Sequence record: MF327006
Strand: one strand, 5' to 3'
Length of the DNA stretch: 64,000 bases
Origin: Shigella phage Sf20
Shown: piece after piece, positions 19,687 through 42,173 of the stretch
Layout: the number at the start of each line of letters is the position of its first letter
Position numbering within the stretch: position 1 is the stretch's first letter
The notes under the pieces: model-generated
Told to the model about the DNA's origin: nothing
What the model saw: the letters and a program-made list of their open reading frames with translations, nothing else
The model's database searches: none
Translations under genes and position numbers: made by a program

Positions 19687-20241
19687 TTAGTTATTTTTTA
19701 ATTGTTCATCTTGCAATAATGCAATCACATGCTGGCGATGTTCTTCCGATTGAGGTACACCGAAAAAGTTTGTTTTGTAGAAATACTCTAATCGGTCTTC
19801 TCGTGTGCTCTCTTCCATCATGATCGCGGGTAGTCCGAGATTTCGGAAACGTCGCTTTTCTGCTGGCGTAAAATCACTGTAATACAACATAGAATCATCA
19901 TTACAAGCAATGCTAAACTCATCCTTCATAAAGGAGAATATTGCGTTTAAACGCTGTTTACCGTCCACGATTTCGATCTCATAGCGAGAGCCATCATCAA
20001 TCTTAGCCATTGCGATAGCACCAACCGGAAAATCATTAATCAGGTTTTCAATAAACATACGTTTGTTTTCGGTGTCCCATACTAAAGGACGCTGATAATC
20101 TGGGTTCATGTTGATATAGCCATCTTCTAACCATGCTTCGTAAACAGAGATAACAAAGTTTTTAGTATTGGTATAGTAGCGGCGTTTAGGCGTTAAACGG
20201 TTCATGTTATAGTCTCCTGAATGGGTCATCACGTAAATCAA
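19687..20241 (-). CDS. DUF262 (ParB-like nuclease superfamily) domain protein
   Basis: DYQRPLVWD and IVDGKQRL motifs resemble the DUF262/GmrS N-terminal domain signature (DGQQR). Confidence 0.55.
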   Translation of the reverse strand: MIYVMTHSGDYNMNRLTPKRRYYTNTKNFVISVYEAWLEDGYINMNPDYQRPLVWDTENKRMFIENLINDFPVGAIAMAKIDDGSRYEIEIVDGKQRLNAIFSFMKDEFSIACNDDSMLYYSDFTPAEKRRFRNLGLPAIMMEESTREDRLEYFYKTNFFGVPQSEEHRQHVIALLQDEQLKNN

Positions 20242-20536
20242 TATCTTTTAAGAACTCATCCCATGAATGGCGGATATTGTTCTTAATTCTCCAGATGAGC
20301 GCAGGGATTGAACGCTCTCCCATCTGGAAGTATGGATCATATGATCCGTATGCCCAATATGCTACTACAATTCCACAATCAGAGCAATAGTATTCTATTT
20401 CACTTGCTGGCGACCAAAGTCCATCAATATGATCGGTGATCTTGCTTTCGATGTTATGGCTATGACAATCAGGGCAACGGATGCAATGACCTTGTTTATC
20501 GTAATTTGACGTTAGCGAATACTTAAACAATCTCAT
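20207..20536 (-). CDS. zinc-ribbon protein (two CxxC pairs)
   Basis: CIRCPDC...CSDCG; overlaps the downstream gene start, operon-like. Confidence 0.45.
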   Translation of the reverse strand: MRLFKYSLTSNYDKQGHCIRCPDCHSHNIESKITDHIDGLWSPASEIEYYCSDCGIVVAYWAYGSYDPYFQMGERSIPALIWRIKNNIRHSWDEFLKDIDLRDDPFRRL

Positions 20537-21252
20537 TATAGATCCTTATTTGCTTCAAATACTGCCTTTGCGAATCCTCGCGGGGTAAGTGACCTTATAG
20601 TCTTTGTTTTCGTTCCTTTCCCGCCTAGCTTAGAATGCTGTTTACTGTACCCTTTATTAATCTGCAACGGTTTCTTTTCTGGCATTATAAAGCCTTGTCC
20701 GGTCCATAAGCAAGTCTTTTTTGGGTACATATCACGGGCGGCAATATACTCAGGAAACGTAGGATGCTTATCATCTTCCGGCAAATAACCGCCATATTCC
20801 CACGGATGGAACATATAATCAGGCTTACGCCACATGCTAGAGATAACGCTTACAGGATTCTCTATCATGTAGGGAACTCCTAGCCATTCACCCAAATAAG
20901 CGGTTATTTTAGCTGCCCGTACATCATGAACTTGAATCAATGGTCCTTGTTCTCGTTTCTTTCGTTCAAAGTGCGCAGCGCCACTAACAGCTAAATTGGT
21001 GCACGGTGGGAATGCAAAGATAATATCCGGTTTCCCCCATTCAAGGTCCATTGCTCTTTCCAGCCAGTTCAAATCAATCCATGTGTTTACATAGGTAATG
21101 TTTGGATGTTCAAATCTGGTATTATACTTTTTGTATGTGCCGTGGTCGCCATCATCAGCATTAAAGCAGATCACCTTATGACCTGCTTTAGCCCATTCTA
21201 GCCCCATTATCCCCGATCCGTCAAAGTTACAGAATATTAATTTTTGTTTCAT
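20536..21252 (-). CDS. DNA cytosine-5 methyltransferase-like protein (catalytic core only)
   Basis: Motif I-like FDGSG, motif IV-like PPC (catalytic Cys), motif VI-like ENP, with spacing typical of C5-MTases; no large target recognition domain. Confidence 0.45.
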   Translation of the reverse strand: MKQKLIFCNFDGSGIMGLEWAKAGHKVICFNADDGDHGTYKKYNTRFEHPNITYVNTWIDLNWLERAMDLEWGKPDIIFAFPPCTNLAVSGAAHFERKKREQGPLIQVHDVRAAKITAYLGEWLGVPYMIENPVSVISSMWRKPDYMFHPWEYGGYLPEDDKHPTFPEYIAARDMYPKKTCLWTGQGFIMPEKKPLQINKGYSKQHSKLGGKGTKTKTIRSLTPRGFAKAVFEANKDL

Positions 21253-30758: not shown

Positions 30759-31079
30759 TTATTTATAAATTTCGACGATCTGCGCTGGAGTCAGCCCGTC
30801 TACATTAATCAGACTATCAAGCCCAAAACTACGGAAACCTTCAACTGCAATTTCATATACTGGCAAAGATGTTTCTGATTCTTTACGCGGTTTTTCAACA
30901 TTAGGAACTAACCACTTTTCGTATGTTTCAAACGGCATCAGTGCCGGATCTCGCGTGGCGATCATCTCACGGACAGTACCATCTTTCTTAGTAAACTGCA
31001 AAGAGTGAGTACCGACCGAAAACATTTTCTTTAGTGCTTCACGAAGTGCGATATTATCAACTTGTTCAGTCATTATCAA
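30759..31079 (-). CDS. hypothetical protein (106 aa)
   Basis: ORF between gene 31 and cd. Confidence 0.45.
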   Translation of the reverse strand: MIMTEQVDNIALREALKKMFSVGTHSLQFTKKDGTVREMIATRDPALMPFETYEKWLVPNVEKPRKESETSLPVYEIAVEGFRSFGLDSLINVDGLTPAQIVEIYK

Positions 31080-31572
31080 TACCCTTCAAATCAGTCAATA
31101 ATGCTTTTGGAATACGCGTGATCGTAATATCTGCATTATTCAGAATATCAGCCCAATCACGCCCACCATTTCGGTCATATGTGTCGCAATAGTATAAATG
31201 TTTAATTCCACTGTTTGCAATTGCTTTAGCGCAATCTGGACACGGTGAAGCAGTACACCACATACTAGCGCCTTCAATCGATACCCCGCTACGGGCAGCA
31301 AACAAAATAGCATTTAATTCAGCGTGGATCTCGTTTTTCTGTGACCATGCACTATGCTCTGGTCGTTTTTCTGGGATCATTTTGCCGTCATCATCCAGCC
31401 AACCGTTTTTATGTGCATGACAGCTACAATTTACTTGCCCTGCTGGAGTTCCGTTAAATCCAGTAGAAATGATTCGCCCGTCTTTTTCGATCAGTGCGCC
31501 TACCTTCCACGAAACACATTTAGAGTTCTTTGCGATCAGATAGGCGATCTGCATGTAAGTTTGTGACAACAT
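31066..31572 (-). CDS. cd: dCMP deaminase
   Basis: Zinc-binding deaminase motifs HAELNAI and PCPDC. Confidence 0.85.
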   Translation of the reverse strand: MLSQTYMQIAYLIAKNSKCVSWKVGALIEKDGRIISTGFNGTPAGQVNCSCHAHKNGWLDDDGKMIPEKRPEHSAWSQKNEIHAELNAILFAARSGVSIEGASMWCTASPCPDCAKAIANSGIKHLYYCDTYDRNGGRDWADILNNADITITRIPKALLTDLKGIDND

Positions 31573-31593
31573 AATATAATCCTCACATAGTAA

Positions 31594-31797
31594 TTAACCG
31601 TATACGCGAAAGTATTCTACTGATCCGTCGCTATACTGTTTTACATTGAATGTATTCACACCATGATTATTTCTCATGATGACATATACACTGCGACGTT
31701 CATCGCTAAACGGCATAACTGGCGCTGGTTCAATATCAACACTAAAACCACGTTTAGCAAGTGCTTCGCCTAATTGCTTGAGTTTATCGGTAAACAT
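31594..31797 (-). CDS. hypothetical protein (67 aa)
   Basis: ORF coupled to pseT. Confidence 0.4.
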   Translation of the reverse strand: MFTDKLKQLGEALAKRGFSVDIEPAPVMPFSDERRSVYVIMRNNHGVNTFNVKQYSDGSVEYFRVYG

Positions 31798-32675
31798 TAA
31801 AAGTCTCCGTAGTTAACCTGAAAACATTCTACACCAATTGAGCGGTACATGTCAACCACTTGATCACGGTCATCTACTGCCAAAACAACATGATAACGCG
31901 GTGCAATTTCAGAGAAGAAAATCTCTTTCTTTACTTCATGATCAGGACGACGATCATTAGTTTCACGCTGGAAGTGATCGCTAGGTTCAATACCCTGTTC
32001 ACGCAGCCATTGCAGAGTATCTTCTTCGCAAACATCCTCACGCCCTGAGCATGTAATGATACGATAACCATTATCACGATACAGTTTAAGCATTTCGATC
32101 ACTTGCGGACGCGGTTTATCTTCTTTGACCTTTGTCCAGTCAAACGGATGACGACCGCCCTTATCCGCTAATGTCCCATCAATATCAAAGATCACCGCTT
32201 TCGGTAGCATGGTATTCGGTTTGTATACTTCTTGACCCATATATTCCTGCATCAGATAAAATTGGTTACGCAAATGAGAAAGTGGAATTGCTTTCTCGCC
32301 GCGATAGAAATTACGTTTCTTTAGTGTCTCAAACGGTTCATTGAACACTTGTTCAGTATACACCGCGTTAAATTCTTTTGCAAGTTCTTTGTAGAATACA
32401 CGATGTTTTTCTTTCAGGTTGGTATCAGAGATAATGAGACTCAATCCGCGTGATAGAGTCTCACGAGCAATCATTCTCTGAATAGACTCTACCAGCTTTT
32501 CTTTTTCCTTAGTATACTTGTATTTCAAAAGTGAGTCAACACCAAACAACATAAGACGAAGATCATCACGATTCACATTACGATAATTACTAAACCGTTT
32601 ACATGTTTCCATAGCCCATGTAGTTTTACCGGACCCAGAACAACCAACGGTTAAAATCACTTCACATTTCGGCAT
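31797..32675 (-). CDS. pseT: polynucleotide 5'-kinase/3'-phosphatase
   Basis: P-loop GCSGSGKTTWA, HAD motif IFDIDGTLA, C-terminal LAVDDRDQVVDMYRSIGVECFQV as in T4 Pnk; start MPKCEV with AGGAG RBS. Confidence 0.9.
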   Translation of the reverse strand: MPKCEVILTVGCSGSGKTTWAMETCKRFSNYRNVNRDDLRLMLFGVDSLLKYKYTKEKEKLVESIQRMIARETLSRGLSLIISDTNLKEKHRVFYKELAKEFNAVYTEQVFNEPFETLKKRNFYRGEKAIPLSHLRNQFYLMQEYMGQEVYKPNTMLPKAVIFDIDGTLADKGGRHPFDWTKVKEDKPRPQVIEMLKLYRDNGYRIITCSGREDVCEEDTLQWLREQGIEPSDHFQRETNDRRPDHEVKKEIFFSEIAPRYHVVLAVDDRDQVVDMYRSIGVECFQVNYGDF

Positions 32676-33127
32676 TATTTCTCCTTCGGTTTGCACCGTT
32701 CCTCATTAAGTTCTTTGCGATAATAACACATGATCAACTTACTTTCAAGTGTATATCTCTTGATATCCGCAAGCCAGACTCTGAATTTTTGGGAGTCCTC
32801 CCACGACATAGAAACTCTAGGTTTACCGTCTATTGTATCCACTTTCAGGTCAATGTCAACTTTTTCTATTGGTGCTGGTAGTGGTGGATGTAATTTCGGT
32901 TCCTGTGAATAATGGTCCATTGTACACGAAGAAAGAGCAAATACAATAGGCACAGCGAAGACATGGATTATGGCGGTCTGAAAATTCTTATGTGCTTTCT
33001 TAAACAACCAGTGTATCACGAAAATTGAAAACACCATAAGGATAATAATGCTTGCACCTATCCCCAGATAATCAACCAGATTAAAATTGCTTATCTGCTC
33101 TTGCGTAGGCAATATTTCTATGCTCAT
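32675..33127 (-). CDS. putative outer-membrane spanin / lipoprotein
   Basis: Hydrophobic N-terminus then lipobox-like LSSC and a Pro-rich segment; adjacent to i-spanin-like gene, as pseT.2/pseT.3 are in T4. Confidence 0.35.
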   Translation of the reverse strand: MSIEILPTQEQISNFNLVDYLGIGASIIILMVFSIFVIHWLFKKAHKNFQTAIIHVFAVPIVFALSSCTMDHYSQEPKLHPPLPAPIEKVDIDLKVDTIDGKPRVSMSWEDSQKFRVWLADIKRYTLESKLIMCYYRKELNEERCKPKEK

Positions 33128-33447
33128 TTAGTAGCCTCCTTTAATTCTTCGGTAAACTCCTTAAATGAATCATTAAGCTGTTTCTCTACCAACTTGGGTT
33201 TTTGTGCTACTACATATCCTCGTGTAGCGTCTTTCATTGCTTTGTTTTGTTCTTCTGCAAACTTAGTTCTTATTCCGTACATCTCCTTTTGTAGTGAGTC
33301 TACAACCTTCATCTTTTCATCTGTCTTTTTCTTATACTCTGTAAATTCCTGATTCAGTCGATCTACCTCCTTTTTATTTTCCCACCACATATTGCCACCT
33401 ACCCCCAGCAACACAGATATGATAACAATGTATATCAGCTTTGACAT
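33124..33447 (-). CDS. putative inner-membrane spanin (N-terminal TM plus coiled coil)
   Basis: Start MSKLIYIVIISVLLGV (TM) then charged coiled coil; position next to pseT. Confidence 0.4.
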   Translation of the reverse strand: MSKLIYIVIISVLLGVGGNMWWENKKEVDRLNQEFTEYKKKTDEKMKVVDSLQKEMYGIRTKFAEEQNKAMKDATRGYVVAQKPKLVEKQLNDSFKEFTEELKEATK

Positions 33448-33491
33448 ATTACCCCCAACGACAAAAGGCGGGGAACTAGCCCCGCTTATTA

Positions 33492-34661
33492 TTACCAATC
33501 AATCTTATCAGCCGGAATCAGTTTCTTATAATTCCGTAGATAGTAAGTTTTCATTGAAGCCAGAATACGGTCATAATCAAGACCATCAAATGCAATCATC
33601 AGACACATGAAAATATATGCTTGTGCATCACCGTGTTTACGTGATTCGATAGTCGCATTTGATGCATATGTCTTTCTGTCTTCTCCCGCGTGTGCGTTAT
33701 AAAATTCTGTTGCTGTCGTGAAGGCATTGCGAAGAATAGACCTGAATGCTTCCTCGAATAGCTCGATTCGTTCCAGTGCTTCCGGTTCGCCTTCATATGC
33801 AGCACGCAAATCATCGGTTTCGCTTTCTACGACATAGTAGATCAGGTTATTAGGAAACATCGATGTGTTTTTAATGTTATGCACACCAATATACCATTCA
33901 CTCTTCACTTTGAACAGTTGACCGTCTTTAGTGCGTGCAACAATTCCTTCGATACCTTCTGCGGTCCGAACTTCATCAAGAATATTGCTAAAACGCGCTG
34001 AATCAACCTGTAGCGCATTTACCAGATGAGGACGTAGGATTGCGTCAGCAAATAGCATTTGATGCGGTACGTACTCTCCTGTGACGTTATGGCGTACATT
34101 CAGAAGTGTTAGCGACGGTTCAGAATATTCTACAACAATTCGGTTGCTGGGTGCTGTATATTCAAAGTTGAAAGTATAATCAGACCCAATATCAGCAATC
34201 TTAGCGCGTAGATCCGCATACTTCTCTGAATACAGAAGACCGTTTGCTCTCTCTGCCTGGCTTGAGTACAAGGCCGCTTTAGACTTCAACTGAACATAGC
34301 CGTTATCAATGTATGTGCTTACTAGACTACCGTCCATTTTGTCCATGACCATTTCCACATCTTCCGGCTTAAAGCGAGCGCGATCATTCTCACCCAAATT
34401 AAAAAACTTCTCCATAGGACGAGATGCGATGCGGACCGGACGACCTTTATCGTCAATTTCAAACATGATCCCGCGACACTCTAACGCATCTGGTTTATTC
34501 CACATTTCAGGTTTGCTCAAGTACAGATAGCTAAAAATGCGCATACGGGTTTGCATCGCCGTAATTTCATCTTTGTAATAGAACGTATCAGATCCGTCAC
34601 ATAGTGCCATCAGATTTTTGAACAATGCTAAAACTTTTTTGTTGTTTTCTTTTGTTGACAT
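33492..34661 (-). CDS. rnlA: RNA ligase 1
   Basis: Nucleotidyltransferase lysine motif KMDGSL; size 389 aa; synteny. Confidence 0.8.
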   Translation of the reverse strand: MSTKENNKKVLALFKNLMALCDGSDTFYYKDEITAMQTRMRIFSYLYLSKPEMWNKPDALECRGIMFEIDDKGRPVRIASRPMEKFFNLGENDRARFKPEDVEMVMDKMDGSLVSTYIDNGYVQLKSKAALYSSQAERANGLLYSEKYADLRAKIADIGSDYTFNFEYTAPSNRIVVEYSEPSLTLLNVRHNVTGEYVPHQMLFADAILRPHLVNALQVDSARFSNILDEVRTAEGIEGIVARTKDGQLFKVKSEWYIGVHNIKNTSMFPNNLIYYVVESETDDLRAAYEGEPEALERIELFEEAFRSILRNAFTTATEFYNAHAGEDRKTYASNATIESRKHGDAQAYIFMCLMIAFDGLDYDRILASMKTYYLRNYKKLIPADKIDW

Positions 34662-35058
34662 AATTTGTGTTCCATTCTGGTTTAAATTTGGTGATCAAAA
34701 CAGGTTCTTCGATATCGGCAGTGCTTATAATATCTTTACCCGTTGGATTCTCAATATATAACTCAAAGCACTGGCGGTAATAGAATGTTACTGTCTTACC
34801 TTCCTCTAGCGCCTTATGAATATTCTTACTCTTGCGAGTATCCGCTGTTGGTGTTTGTCTGTTAATGCTAGTCCGGTAATAATTGATCCGCTTTCTGAGA
34901 TTGACAGTCTGACCAATATATACCAGTTCATCATCAACAACAATAGCGTAAAGAACATTTAAACGGTTCTTCTGAGGCGGCAGAATCACATCACCATCTT
35001 TACACTCTAAACATGAATATTTAACGAATCCATAGTTTTCTATTAGCTCATTAATCAT
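34597..35058 (-). CDS. denA: endonuclease II (GIY-YIG family)
   Basis: NVLYAIVVDDELVYIGQTVNLRKRINYYRT closely matches T4 EndoII. Confidence 0.8.
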   Translation of the reverse strand: MINELIENYGFVKYSCLECKDGDVILPPQKNRLNVLYAIVVDDELVYIGQTVNLRKRINYYRTSINRQTPTADTRKSKNIHKALEEGKTVTFYYRQCFELYIENPTGKDIISTADIEEPVLITKFKPEWNTNYVNKRKQQKSFSIVQKSDGTM

Positions 35059-35108
35059 TATCCTTTCCTCACGTCACAACAAAGGCGGGATTTCTCCCGC
35101 CCACCTTA

Positions 35109-35507
35109 TTAACTTTCCAGAATATCGCGAGCTTCGTTACGATCCTTGATGATTTTCAAGACAAATTCCAGTTTTTCTTTGTTCAGCGTTCCATTTTCCA
35201 TTGCTTCTTTGACGGTAAACACTCCGCCACCTTGCCCGTATACAGTGACAGTGATTTCACCTAACATCGTGGTATGAAAACCGCCAATTTTCGGTGATTC
35301 GAAAGAAACAATTACCTCGCGAACAGTATTACCGTCGTTGATTTCTGAGAGGGTAATGTCGTTTTTGTAGGCGGTTGCTTTAACCATACGGATCAGCATA
35401 GTCTGATCTGGGGAGATGGTCATTTTGTCCATTGCATGTTGCAATGCAGCGTAACCGAAAACTTTAACGAAGTCCAGAACGTCTTTGCGAGTTTGAAATT
35501 TAATCAT
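35109..35507 (-). CDS. hypothetical protein (132 aa)
   Basis: ORF behind promoter-like element at ~35541-35569. Confidence 0.45.
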   Translation of the reverse strand: MIKFQTRKDVLDFVKVFGYAALQHAMDKMTISPDQTMLIRMVKATAYKNDITLSEINDGNTVREVIVSFESPKIGGFHTTMLGEITVTVYGQGGGVFTVKEAMENGTLNKEKLEFVLKIIKDRNEARDILES

Positions 35508-40940: not shown

Positions 40941-42173
40941 TTATACTGCCATTTGAGCGGTGATTGCTGGATGGCTTTGATAGTTGTGAATTTTAAAGTC
41001 TTTCGGAGTCTTTGTCAATACCTCATCTAAAGATTTAAATTCCGGCAACTCAATTGTTGGTTTATCAAACGGAACACGGCTTAACTGTTCCATAACTTGA
41101 TCAAAGTGGTTTTTGTAAATGTGAGTATCTCCACCAGAGAAAATCAGTTCTCCTACCTCAAGATCACACATTTTCGCTATGATGTGAGTTAACAGCGCAT
41201 AGCTGGCGACGTTAAAGGGCAAGCCCAAAAAGCTATCTACGCTTCTCTGAAACCACATGCAAGATAGTTTACCTTCATTGACATAGAATTGCACGAAAGG
41301 ATGACATACACCTAATACAGCATTATGTGTTCCTTGTACGTTCCATGAGTCAATGATGATACGTCGATCCGTTGGATTGTTTTTAATTTGTTCAATCACG
41401 TTTTGTAACTGGTCTTCCCAAATCTTCGGGCGATAGACATATTCTTCATCGTCTTTAGTGCTCGATGTGTCTACGTCCATACTAGCAAAGATCGTGGTAT
41501 CTGGTGCTAAAATATCCCCACCCAGATAATCACTATCAAGCAGATAACCGAAATAACCATCATCTACCCATTCCTGGAATCCCCACAAGCAATATGCATC
41601 ATTAACAAAATTAGATTGAGTCTTCCAGTGATCGGCTACTAAGAATTGATTATATTCAGAATCAAACTCTTCATAACGCATACCACGCCAGATAGCACAT
41701 AAACGGTCTTCTGTGTCATTGGTTGGCGTAAAGTCTTCTACCCACGGGTGTTTAAATGTATGTGTATATTTGCTCTTAACGCGCTTAATTTTGATTTCAC
41801 CATGTGGATGAATCGGTTTGCGTCGCCACGCCATACCATACATATTGCCGACATTATAACCATTGAATCGCAAAGGATTCTTTTCTTTCATATCAAGACA
41901 GTTGCCGCGCCAAATGTCGAAGGCTTCTTCGTCAAACTTGCCGCGTGTAATTTCTTGTAAGCGACGGCGATCAAGTGATCCCTCCATAAACCATAGCAAC
42001 TCGCCAATTACAGAGGCTGTAGCCATCTTTTTAGTGGTCAGTAAGGGGAAACCCTTGCTTAAGTCAATTCGCATTTCTGCACCGAATTTAGAGAGCGTAC
42101 CTACCCCCGTGCGGTCTTCACGAGGCCAGCCATTATCAAGAACATCACGCAACAGTTTCAAATATTCTTTCAT
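40941..42173 (-). CDS. td: thymidylate synthase with ~100-aa internal insertion
   Basis: DRTGVGTLS, DRRIIIDSWNV, CHPFVQFYV, LPFNVASYALL; extra ~100 aa between WRR and DQLQNVIEQ. Confidence 0.85.
   Translation of the reverse strand: MKEYLKLLRDVLDNGWPREDRTGVGTLSKFGAEMRIDLSKGFPLLTTKKMATASVIGELLWFMEGSLDRRRLQEITRGKFDEEAFDIWRGNCLDMKEKNPLRFNGYNVGNMYGMAWRRKPIHPHGEIKIKRVKSKYTHTFKHPWVEDFTPTNDTEDRLCAIWRGMRYEEFDSEYNQFLVADHWKTQSNFVNDAYCLWGFQEWVDDGYFGYLLDSDYLGGDILAPDTTIFASMDVDTSSTKDDEEYVYRPKIWEDQLQNVIEQIKNNPTDRRIIIDSWNVQGTHNAVLGVCHPFVQFYVNEGKLSCMWFQRSVDSFLGLPFNVASYALLTHIIAKMCDLEVGELIFSGGDTHIYKNHFDQVMEQLSRVPFDKPTIELPEFKSLDEVLTKTPKDFKIHNYQSHPAITAQMAV

Follow-up and report, generated by a model that had tools for sequence, protein, structure and literature searches.

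Very probably (we put the probability at about 0.9), the slot between pseT and rnlA in Shigella phage Sf20 (sequence record MF327006) is that of a Krischvirus phage which carries a spanin pair without alc, whose genome as a whole lacks gene 42, the α- and β-glucosyltransferase genes, alc, denB and arn, and whose DNA contains ordinary cytosine; the last point follows from the lack of this set of genes in the lineage. For this isolate, the analysis covered a stretch of 64 kb (hereafter the window), and the absence from the whole genome is taken from RB49, which is 98% identical over a 4.2-kb region, and from three papers on the genus. The coordinates of the features are collected in Table 1.

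Table 1. Features of the window discussed in the text, with the matches or sequence characters that define them.
Feature	Position	Strand	Evidence and remarks
C5-cytosine-methyltransferase-like protein, 238 aa (RB49p189 homologue)	20536..21252	-	PHROG 757 'DNA methyltransferase', E 2e-90
pseT (polynucleotide kinase/phosphatase)	31797..32675	-	Downstream slot boundary; PHROG 505, E 2.6e-114; RB49 annotation
Predicted o-spanin precursor gene, 150 aa (T4 pseT.2 homologue)	32675..33127	-	PHROG 812 'Rz-like spanin', E 1.5e-32
Putative internal lipoprotein (signal peptidase II) signal, codons 43-68	32924..33001	-	Basic loop KKAHK, hydrophobic h-region, lipobox LSS|C68
Lineage-specific N-terminal extension, o-spanin codons 1-42	33002..33127	-	Acidic tail and predicted extra transmembrane helix (about residues 17-42)
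Predicted i-spanin gene, 107 aa (T4 pseT.3 homologue)	33124..33447	-	PHROG 739 'Rz-like spanin', E 6.3e-27
Terminator-like hairpin GCGGGGCTAGTTCCCCGC, then CTTTTGT	33468..33485	-	GC-rich; terminator scan; in the rnlA–i-spanin spacer
rnlA (RNA ligase 1 / gp63)	33492..34661	-	Upstream slot boundary; PHROG 562, E 1.4e-123
denA (endonuclease II homologue)	34597..35058	-	PHROG 1111, E 2e-52; GIY-YIG Pfam match; retained despite no hmC genes

By its sequence, the window is part of the genome of a Krischvirus, an RB49-like relative of T4. The region 31000-35200 is matched by 58 Krischvirus records at 95–99% identity, and identity to RB49, JSE and Delraymugoa, all members of this genus, is 98–99%. Among the matches listed, 25 Krischvirus records align to this region as a single collinear block of 4200–4206 nt, so that none of them has an insertion in the slot. 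The resemblance to RB49-type phages that had been suggested from the letters alone is therefore literally correct, because the window is itself Krischvirus sequence.

The products of the two boundary genes share 44% (PseT) and 43% (RnlA) identity with their T4 counterparts in tblastn, and the 3' end of denA overlaps the annotated start of rnlA. Between these boundaries, the slot (32675-33498) is made up of two adjacent minus-strand ORFs, 33124..33498 (124 aa when read from a TTG) and 32675..33127 (150 aa). In T4, the gene order is pseT, pseT.1, pseT.2, pseT.3, alc, rnlA, in agreement with the earlier note's premise that alc lies between pseT and rnlA. However, the T4 slot carries the pseT.2/pseT.3 pair too, with pseT.1 downstream of the pair and alc upstream, and these are the only two T4 slot genes missing here. 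Therefore, the observation that the slot holds only a spanin-like pair stands, whereas the pair should not be seen as a substitute for alc, since it occupies this place in T4 as well. The order pseT, pseT.2, pseT.3, rnlA is identical in RB49 (NC_005066), JSE, Phi1 and Delraymugoa, at 98–99% nucleotide identity, and in these genomes both slot genes are already annotated as pseT.2/pseT.3 and 'Rz-like spanin'. The locus in the window shows no substantial difference from theirs.

The spacer from rnlA to the pseT.3 homologue measures 44 nt and contains the terminator-like hairpin, whose stem is kept, with a different loop, in a divergent relative (L012/L013). The T4-type late promoter motif TATAAATA does not occur in the slot, its six occurrences in the whole window being at chance level, and sigma-70-like promoters are not enriched (15 found against 10.8 expected).

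Nothing in the window resembles T4 Alc; only the genomic position where the gene would be expected corresponds. In tblastn, T4 Alc reaches at best an E-value of 6.6 against the window and of 0.36 against the complete genome of RB49, and seven related loci gave no match. A spacer of 44 nt leaves no room for a remnant of the gene, and a remnant was ruled out by this length together with the lack of tblastn signal. The alc-less slot is common to six relatives, among them the divergent metagenomic L012/L013. The claim that alc is missing between pseT and rnlA is thus borne out by the tblastn searches, the short spacer and the collinear relatives. Alc itself is present in 1137 phage records, from phages of Escherichia, Klebsiella, Acinetobacter, Aeromonas and other hosts. 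T4 Alc brings transcription to an end on DNA that contains cytosine, and hence in a phage with such DNA it would work against the very genome that encodes it. The lack of alc and the lack of modification genes travel together as one trait.

On homology to T4, the two slot ORFs are a T4-type two-component spanin pair, as had been proposed from a transmembrane plus coiled-coil protein and a lipoprotein-like ORF, and we infer their function from the tested T4 pair. The two genes are adjacent and non-embedded ('separated'), with the i-spanin gene first; the o-spanin start and the i-spanin stop overlap as ATGA, and the o-spanin stop and the pseT start as TAATG. Pfam and NCBIfam scans of both proteins gave no meaningful match, while precomputed domain matches name PF26831 (Phage_T4_Spanin). 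The pair would perform the final lysis step of the phage. The i-spanin would be held in the inner membrane by its N-terminal transmembrane domain (TMD) and the o-spanin in the outer membrane as a lipoprotein attached through Cys68, so that together they could span the periplasm and, after removal of the murein by the endolysin, disrupt the outer membrane.

The i-spanin is 35% identical to T4 PseT.3 over 93 aa (tblastn, E 6e-10), and the T4 i-spanin family is known to include RB49, JSE and Phi1 (PMC6139136). The only hydrophobic segment of this protein spans residues 1-22 (KD 1.86); the TMD would occupy about residues 4-22, followed by a predicted helical periplasmic domain, and the protein contains no cysteine. 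Its true start is almost certainly ATG 33447 (MSKLIYIV...) and not TTG 33498, to judge from a GGGGG Shine-Dalgarno-like run upstream of the ATG, from the overlap of the TTG with the rnlA stop and the hairpin, and from Delraymugoa, PTE-Eco09 and W115, in which the gene is annotated with a length of 324 nt, i.e., with the same start. In contrast, the RefSeq annotation of RB49 begins pseT.3 at an internal Met (88 aa), by which the TMD is lost.

The o-spanin shows 48% identity to residues 29-99 of T4 PseT.2 (tblastn, E 5e-19), and its PHROG match covers residues 53-150 only. The lipobox LSSC, located by a lipobox regular expression and hydropathy, corresponds to residues 65-68, of which L65 and C68 do not vary across the alignment. 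Near the C-terminus, C134 (invariant) and C145 (nearly so) are the counterparts of T4 C87 and C98, both essential in the T4 o-spanin (PMC6139136). The whole protein has the same sequence as its JSE counterpart (100% identity), and the mature part evolves with an omega of 0.098 between the window and L012. A scan of IMG/VR for relatives of the o-spanin retrieved two near-identical loci only.

What sets this o-spanin apart is its N-terminal extension, with a lipoprotein signal that is atypical in place, being internal and behind an extra TMD. The extension region of the query is covered only by the 58 Krischvirus records. Metagenomic relatives with as little as 61–63% identity still conserve it. 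Its hydrophobicity reaches a KD maximum of 2.56, and AF2 predicts a helix at residues 17-44. These features suggest that the o-spanin of the Krischvirus lineage could be made as an unusual precursor, with an acidic N-terminal tail and a transmembrane helix, a basic loop and the internal LSS|C68 signal, inserted as an N-out membrane hairpin; we would give this model about an even chance. In the predicted topology the basic loop would be cytoplasmic, and cleavage by signal peptidase II would free a normal 83-aa lipoprotein and leave a two-helix peptide of 67 residues in the inner membrane.

Alternatively, translation may begin at codon 41 and yield a canonical prolipoprotein of 110 aa, in which case the 150-aa ORF would not be the functional precursor and the first 40 codons would be an untranslated or minor-product leader, or belong to a dual-start regulatory form. 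Read from this codon, (M/L)FKKAHKNFQTAIIHVFAVPIVFALSS|C is a textbook lipoprotein signal, and codon 41 is ATG (Met) in six of the six close relatives compared and TTG (Leu) in the window. Nevertheless, P0007 and P0008 have Ile at this position, and codon 41 is not preceded by a Shine-Dalgarno sequence, whereas AGGAGG or AGGAG stands before codon 1 in both the window (AGGAGG, 7 nt upstream) and the divergent L012. In addition, even at divergences that saturate synonymous sites, the extension stays in frame and retains the acidic tail, the hydrophobic helix and the motif F-N-L..LG.G. This saturation, found in the dN/dS comparison of the window with L012, allows only a qualitative statement on the constraint acting on the extension. 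We regard this alternative as rather unlikely. Its dual-start, holin-like form, with a start at codon 41, was weakened by the missing Shine-Dalgarno sequence and by the Met that P0007 and P0008 do not conserve, but it stays a rival explanation.

If the long, hairpin-forming precursor is real, its pre-sequence could delay or regulate spanin maturation, and the leftover 67-residue peptide could itself contribute to lysis. Such a pre-sequence is not mentioned in the spanin survey (PMC6139136), and a conserved extra TMD before an o-spanin lipoprotein signal may be new. It would represent a testable variation on spanin maturation, of possible specialist interest.

Regarding DNA modification, T4 proteins served as tblastn queries for the window and for the complete genome of RB49. 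These searches recovered pseT, rnlA, denA, cd, gp56 and dam, but not alc, pseT.1, a-gt, b-gt, denB, arn or ndd. The gp42 query gave, in both the window and RB49, a weak paralogous match to the thymidylate synthase td (E 0.008-0.009), and the α- and β-glucosyltransferases gave no match better than E 0.7 in either sequence. For gene 42, the glucosyltransferase genes and alc, which the earlier note had proposed to look for in the complete genome, no homologue turned up in the window or across the entire genome of RB49. The absence of gp42 from the window, which the same note had also pointed out, is confirmed but carries no weight alone: the window is syntenic with the T4 region from gene 24 to just before gene 52, and T4 carries 42, a-gt and b-gt at 24-38 kb, outside that region, so that synteny predicts only alc and arn for the window.

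The DenA and gp56 homologues retained in this genome are each 49% identical to their T4 counterparts. T4 DenA and gp56 are tied to the exclusion of cytosine, and their retention counts against a reading of the DNA as unmodified in its cytosines. Homologues of DenA and of the dCTPase gp56 have been regarded as non-diagnostic for an hmC system, and groups XV and XVI (RB43, RB49) possess only these two (PMC8056088).

Published data on the genus agree with the gene content. HpaII and NheI digest RB49 DNA, which is described as being without hmC and ghmC (PMC4041780), Krischvirus phages have neither the hmC transferase nor endonuclease IV and transduce plasmids (PMC12115623), and Krischvirus TB34 contains canonical bases by HPLC-MS (PMC13390438). 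Palindrome counts provide a further, independent indication. C/G-containing palindromic hexamers occur in the window at an observed/expected ratio (O/E) of 0.65, and 13 of the 43 are absent, including TCCGGA, GAATTC, AAGCTT and GGATCC; in T4 the ratio is 0.975 and none is absent. Within the window, the corresponding ratios are 0.87 for AT-only palindromes and 1.005 for non-palindromes, while CCWGG falls to 0.33-0.46. The avoidance is seen in RB49 as well as in the window, and not in T4, and it is the pattern expected of DNA in which type II restriction enzymes can recognise the cytosines. A literature search on palindrome avoidance in RB49 gave nothing relevant. The hint of unmodified DNA in the earlier note is thus in line with the RB49 gene content, the digests, the HPLC-MS and the palindromes.

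The window also encodes, as had been noticed, a C5-cytosine-methyltransferase-like protein, an assignment that holds by its motifs and predicted fold. Its match to PF00145, at 14.4 bits (E 0.027), falls short of the gathering threshold of 22 bits and covers motifs I-IV only; a few family members carry a precomputed PF00145 match. Nevertheless, the FxGSG, PPC and ENP motifs (F10, G12, S13, G14, P82, P83, C84, E131, N132, P133) are invariant in 29 family members. A PDB search by sequence gave no match; the AF2 model (pLDDT 88.6) finds its best PDB folds in DNMT3A/3B, DNMT2 and DIM2 (E 2e-7 to 1e-3, TM about 0.45-0.5). The predicted enzyme may add site-specific 5mC. In other phages, a C5-methyltransferase performs the first step of a TET-type route, and its presence here favours a rival view in which hypermodified cytosine (hmC or glycosyl-hmC) would be made by a pathway without gp42 and the known glucosyltransferases, the loss of alc then being unrelated to base composition.

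Such a pathway is also favoured by a recent report on Krischvirus SAP, in which, although the known genes are lacking, 5-hmdC and α-gentiobiosyl-mdC were detected together with sensitivity to the type IV enzyme BrxU, without candidate genes (PMC13390438, 2026). If real, this modification would mean that gene content is no predictor of modification in Krischvirus. However, SAP shares 99.96% identity with TB34, whose bases are canonical, and the modification profile of SAP is that of seven Tequatrovirus phages of the same collection (PMC13390438), a coincidence that possibly reflects a mixed lysate. HpaII and NheI both cleave the DNA of RB49 (PMC4041780), so that those sites at least are unmethylated, and the extreme avoidance of C/G palindromes in the window and RB49, as opposed to T4, indicates unmodified cytosines long exposed to restriction. 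This signature is an independent argument on the report of hmC-type bases in SAP, and we consider a hidden hypermodification pathway very improbable. Finally, that alc and the hmC genes simply sit in the roughly 100 kb of the genome outside the window is hardly credible: only 64 kb were available, and in T4 the region of synteny does not include 42, a-gt and b-gt, but the complete RB49 genome lacks alc and the hmC genes by tblastn, two independent papers say likewise for Krischvirus, and the position next to the spanin genes where alc is annotated in other genera is empty here.

We class the window as Krischvirus sequence with cytosine-containing DNA. This reading explains its avoidance of restriction sites, its C5-methyltransferase-like gene and the transducing ability known for these phages. 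For RB49-type phages, annotation and literature already document the lack of alc and of the hmC pathway, the unmodified DNA and the pseT.2/pseT.3 spanins.

With respect to known lysis systems, the pair shares with that of T4 the slot adjoining pseT, the gene order, the ATGA junction and an i-spanin with an N-terminal TMD and no cysteine, as well as a lipobox Cys followed by a mature o-spanin of 83 aa with two conserved C-terminal cysteines. In contrast, the T4 o-spanin precursor has 99 aa against 150 aa here, the surplus being the TMD and loop before the lipoprotein signal. The T4 pseT.3/pseT.2 pair complements lambda Rz/Rz1, and RB49 belongs to both T4 spanin families (PMC6139136). The likeness to Rz/Rz1 is one of functional class, an inner-membrane protein with an outer-membrane lipoprotein; there is no sequence similarity, and the lambda genes are nested, whereas here they are separate and adjacent.

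The interval between pseT and rnlA contains exactly two minus-strand ORFs, which are a known, already annotated spanin pair whose function is predicted from sequence. They belong to PHROG families 739 (i-spanin, E 6e-27) and 812 (o-spanin, E 1.5e-32), both named 'Rz-like spanin'. When proteins translated from the T4 record were used in local tblastn searches, T4 PseT.3 matched the i-spanin gene (35% identity, E 6e-10) and T4 PseT.2 the o-spanin gene (48% identity, E 5e-19). The i-spanin protein has a single N-terminal hydrophobic segment and no cysteine; the o-spanin has a LSSC lipobox with Cys68, two C-terminal cysteines (C134 and C145) and a mature part of 83 aa, the same length as in T4 PseT.2. 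The matching cysteine pair is essential in T4 PseT.2, lambda Rz/Rz1 are complemented by T4 pseT.3/pseT.2, and the T4 i- and o-spanin families include RB49, JSE and Phi1 (Kongari et al., PMC6139136). Homology, TMD-like segment, lipobox and cysteines thus bear out the earlier note's description of a spanin-like pair.

A megablast of window positions 31000-35200 against 50,697 phage records matched 58, every one a Krischvirus (RB49-like) coliphage, with at least 80% query coverage and 95-99% identity, each of the matches listed forming a single collinear piece. The closest were Delraymugoa and Aragogtheria (98.8%), and RB49 and JSE stood at 98.1%. RB49 positions minus 95,931 approximate window positions, and therefore the window spans gene 24 to just short of gene 52.

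For the i-spanin, the biologically sensible start is the ATG at 33447, preceded by GGGGG, which gives a 107-aa product beginning MSKLIYIVIISVLLGVGG; the annotations of Delraymugoa, PTE-Eco09 and W115 use the same start. The RB49 RefSeq pseT.3 starts 19 codons further in, at an internal Met, and thereby loses the transmembrane segment that an i-spanin needs. This RefSeq start is probably an annotation error, the window and other Krischvirus records favouring the 107-aa product. The o-spanin stop shares TAATG with the pseT ATG, so the true pseT start is 32675, and the GTG at 32696 was rejected. The stem of the terminator-like hairpin is kept in the divergent metagenomic contigs L012 and L013, where the loop differs and is shorter. 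At the other end of rnlA, T4 DenA homology extends to 34651 and T4 RnlA homology begins at 34625, so the denA/rnlA overlap looks partly real, whereas the two genes are separated in T4.

Features of the pseT-rnlA region and other genes discussed (window positions, except RB49 entries, which refer to segments of its joined genome)
Feature	Position	Strand	Remarks
i-spanin ORF, mechanical call	33124..33498	-	TTG start
o-spanin ORF	32675..33127	-	150 aa; ATG overlaps i-spanin stop (ATGA)
o-spanin extension and lipoprotein signal	32924-33127	-	~42-residue extension with extra transmembrane helix, then internal LSS-C68
o-spanin codon 41	33005-33007	-	TTG (Leu) in the window
Terminator-like GC-rich hairpin	33468-33485	-	GCGGGGCTAGTTCCCCGC then CTTTTGT (T-run); within 44-nt rnlA-pseT.3 spacer
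denA 3' end/annotated rnlA 5' end	34597-34661	-	65-nt overlap, different frames
DUF262 gene	19687-20241	-	184 aa
Cys-rich ORF	20207-20536		109 aa
C5-methyltransferase-like gene	20536-21252	-	238 aa
Thymidylate synthase td	40941-42173	-	410 aa
RB49 RefSeq pseT.3	L001 34055-34321		88 aa
RB49 gene 56	L003 9490-10008		outside the window

The o-spanin ORF is longer than the 99 aa of T4, with about 50 extra N-terminal residues ahead of the lipoprotein signal. An acidic tail (residues 1-16, net charge -2) and a strongly hydrophobic helix (~17-42, KD maximum 2.56) are followed by a basic loop (KKAHK), the h-region and the lipobox, and a predicted structure of low-to-moderate confidence (AF2, pLDDT 67) has helices at 17-44 and 47-67, a disordered linker, a beta-hairpin and a long helix. 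Within the phage collection, this part of the query is covered only by the 58 Krischvirus records; metagenomic relatives at 82%, 73% and 61-63% identity share the architecture (151-155 aa, LSSC lipobox, 83-aa mature part), and one 98-aa relative is of the short canonical form. From the positive-inside rule, the likeliest topology of the precursor is an N-out hairpin with Cys68 facing the periplasm. Lgt and LspA could process this hairpin, freeing a normal lipoprotein, and a 67-residue two-helix peptide would remain in the inner membrane.

Translation might conceivably begin at codon 41 instead, or at both starts; this codon is ATG in RB49, Delraymugoa, PTE-Eco09, W115 and two IMG/VR contigs, and from it the sequence reads as a textbook prolipoprotein signal. 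However, codon 41 is Ile in more distant relatives and has no Shine-Dalgarno. In the window and in L012 alike, a strong one (AGGAGG or AGGAG) stands before codon 1, and the internal starts all lack one. The pre-sequence of the full-length precursor is possibly a new feature and represents a modest, testable lead; the spanin survey (PMC6139136) does not mention a comparable one.

As the earlier note had stated, no alc lies between pseT and rnlA, where neither ORF gave a significant tblastn match to T4 Alc, and the T4 record does place alc there, between pseT.3 and rnlA. The suggested whole-genome search was run on RB49: T4 Alc, PseT.1, gp42, alpha-gt, beta-gt, DenB, Arn and Ndd had no significant tblastn match in the window or the complete concatenated RB49 genome, the sole signal among the T4 modification queries coming from gp42, which weakly matched the paralogous thymidylate synthase. 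Homologues of PseT, RnlA, DenA and Cd are present in both, and those of gp56 and Dam occur in RB49 beyond the window-equivalent region. The window does lack a dCMP hydroxymethylase, but this absence alone is uninformative, since T4 genes 42, beta-gt and alpha-gt, at 24-38 kb, fall outside the stretch of the T4 map that shares synteny with the window; the weight for the missing hmC genes is carried by the RB49 search. Alc and PseT.1 are also absent from six further related loci, including metagenomic contigs with an o-spanin only 63% identical, which share the order denA, rnlA, i-spanin, o-spanin, pseT, cd.2, cd. Elsewhere Alc is common: it turns up in 1137 phage records, whose hosts include Escherichia, Klebsiella, Acinetobacter and Aeromonas, and is frequently annotated adjoining a spanin gene. 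The product of RB49 gene 56, a dCTPase/dUTPase homologue, is 49% identical to T4 gp56; that this gene and denA are kept in a phage using dCTP is an oddity, also remarked on previously (PMC8056088).

The 238-aa protein, a homologue of RB49p189, has no Pfam match at default settings, PF00145 remaining below threshold (14.4 bits). PHROG places it in family 757, and it also falls within a family of over 7,000 proteins, some of which bear the name C-5 cytosine-specific methylase. The FxGSG, PPC and ENP motifs are invariant in 29 members of this family, and the AF2 model of the 238-aa protein is confident (pLDDT 88.6), with DNMT3A/3B, DNMT2 and DIM2 as closest folds. Motifs and fold therefore justify its earlier label as C5-methyltransferase-like. 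Two genes away, with the Cys-rich ORF between, the DUF262 product comprises only the N-terminal domain of GmrSD type IV restriction enzymes (Pfam GmrSD_N, E 6e-20). The td product greatly exceeds T4 Td in length. The Pfam TS domain matches its RB49 orthologue in two stretches, of which the second begins only at residue 254 (profile position 110), pointing to a large in-frame insertion.

The proposal of unmodified or methylated, rather than glucosyl-hmC, DNA agrees with the literature, RB49 gene content and palindrome avoidance, and the reading of an RB49-type phage with unmodified DNA is supported as correct. Groups XV and XVI (RB43, RB49) have only DenA and dCTPase/dUTPase homologues, without Alc and DenB, and encode a DNA-cytosine methyltransferase (PMC8056088). 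In Krischvirus, hmC transferase and endonuclease IV are missing, and RB49 is able to transduce plasmids (PMC12115623). RB49 DNA contains neither hmC nor ghmC and is cut at its unblocked HpaII and NheI sites (PMC4041780), and HPLC-MS of Krischvirus TB34 showed canonical nucleosides (PMC13390438).

Observed counts of palindromic hexamers were also compared with Markov expectations. In the window, C/G-containing palindromes gave O/E 0.65, with 13 of 43 absent (expectation of at least 5), compared with 0.87 (0/8) for AT-only palindromes and 1.005 (8/3583) for non-palindromic hexamers; C/G-containing palindromes gave 0.63 (19/52 absent) in the whole RB49 genome and 0.975 (0/44) in T4 (99 kb). TCCGGA (22 expected), GAATTC (18), AAGCTT (13) and GGATCC (12) are among those missing from the window, and CCWGG is rarer than expected (O/E 0.33-0.46). 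On the established view of restriction avoidance, type II sites that contain cytosine are expected to be lost selectively where cytosines are unshielded. This loss supports unmodified cytosine independently of gene absence, a useful corroboration, and speaks for a long history of exposed cytosines in the Krischvirus lineage. For GATC the contrast is the opposite, with strong avoidance in T4 (O/E 0.33) and none in the window (1.04).

A 2026 paper reported Krischvirus SAP to contain 5-hmdC and alpha-gentiobiosyl-mdC and to be cut by BrxU, found no responsible genes and called the result unexplained (PMC13390438). Hypermodification of the DNA of the phage studied here by an unknown route, as reported for SAP despite the absent known pathway genes, is a rival reading but very improbable given the palindrome signature, the 99.96% identity of SAP to unmodified TB34 and a modification profile equal to that of seven Tequatrovirus phages of the same collection (PMC13390438). 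From this profile, we suspect that the SAP preparation was a mixed lysate.

A spanin slot without alc and unmodified DNA in RB49-type phages are thus both already published. The T4 record has the order pseT, pseT.1, pseT.2, pseT.3, alc, rnlA, denA, that is, the same spanin pair in the same slot, from which the window differs only by the missing alc and pseT.1.
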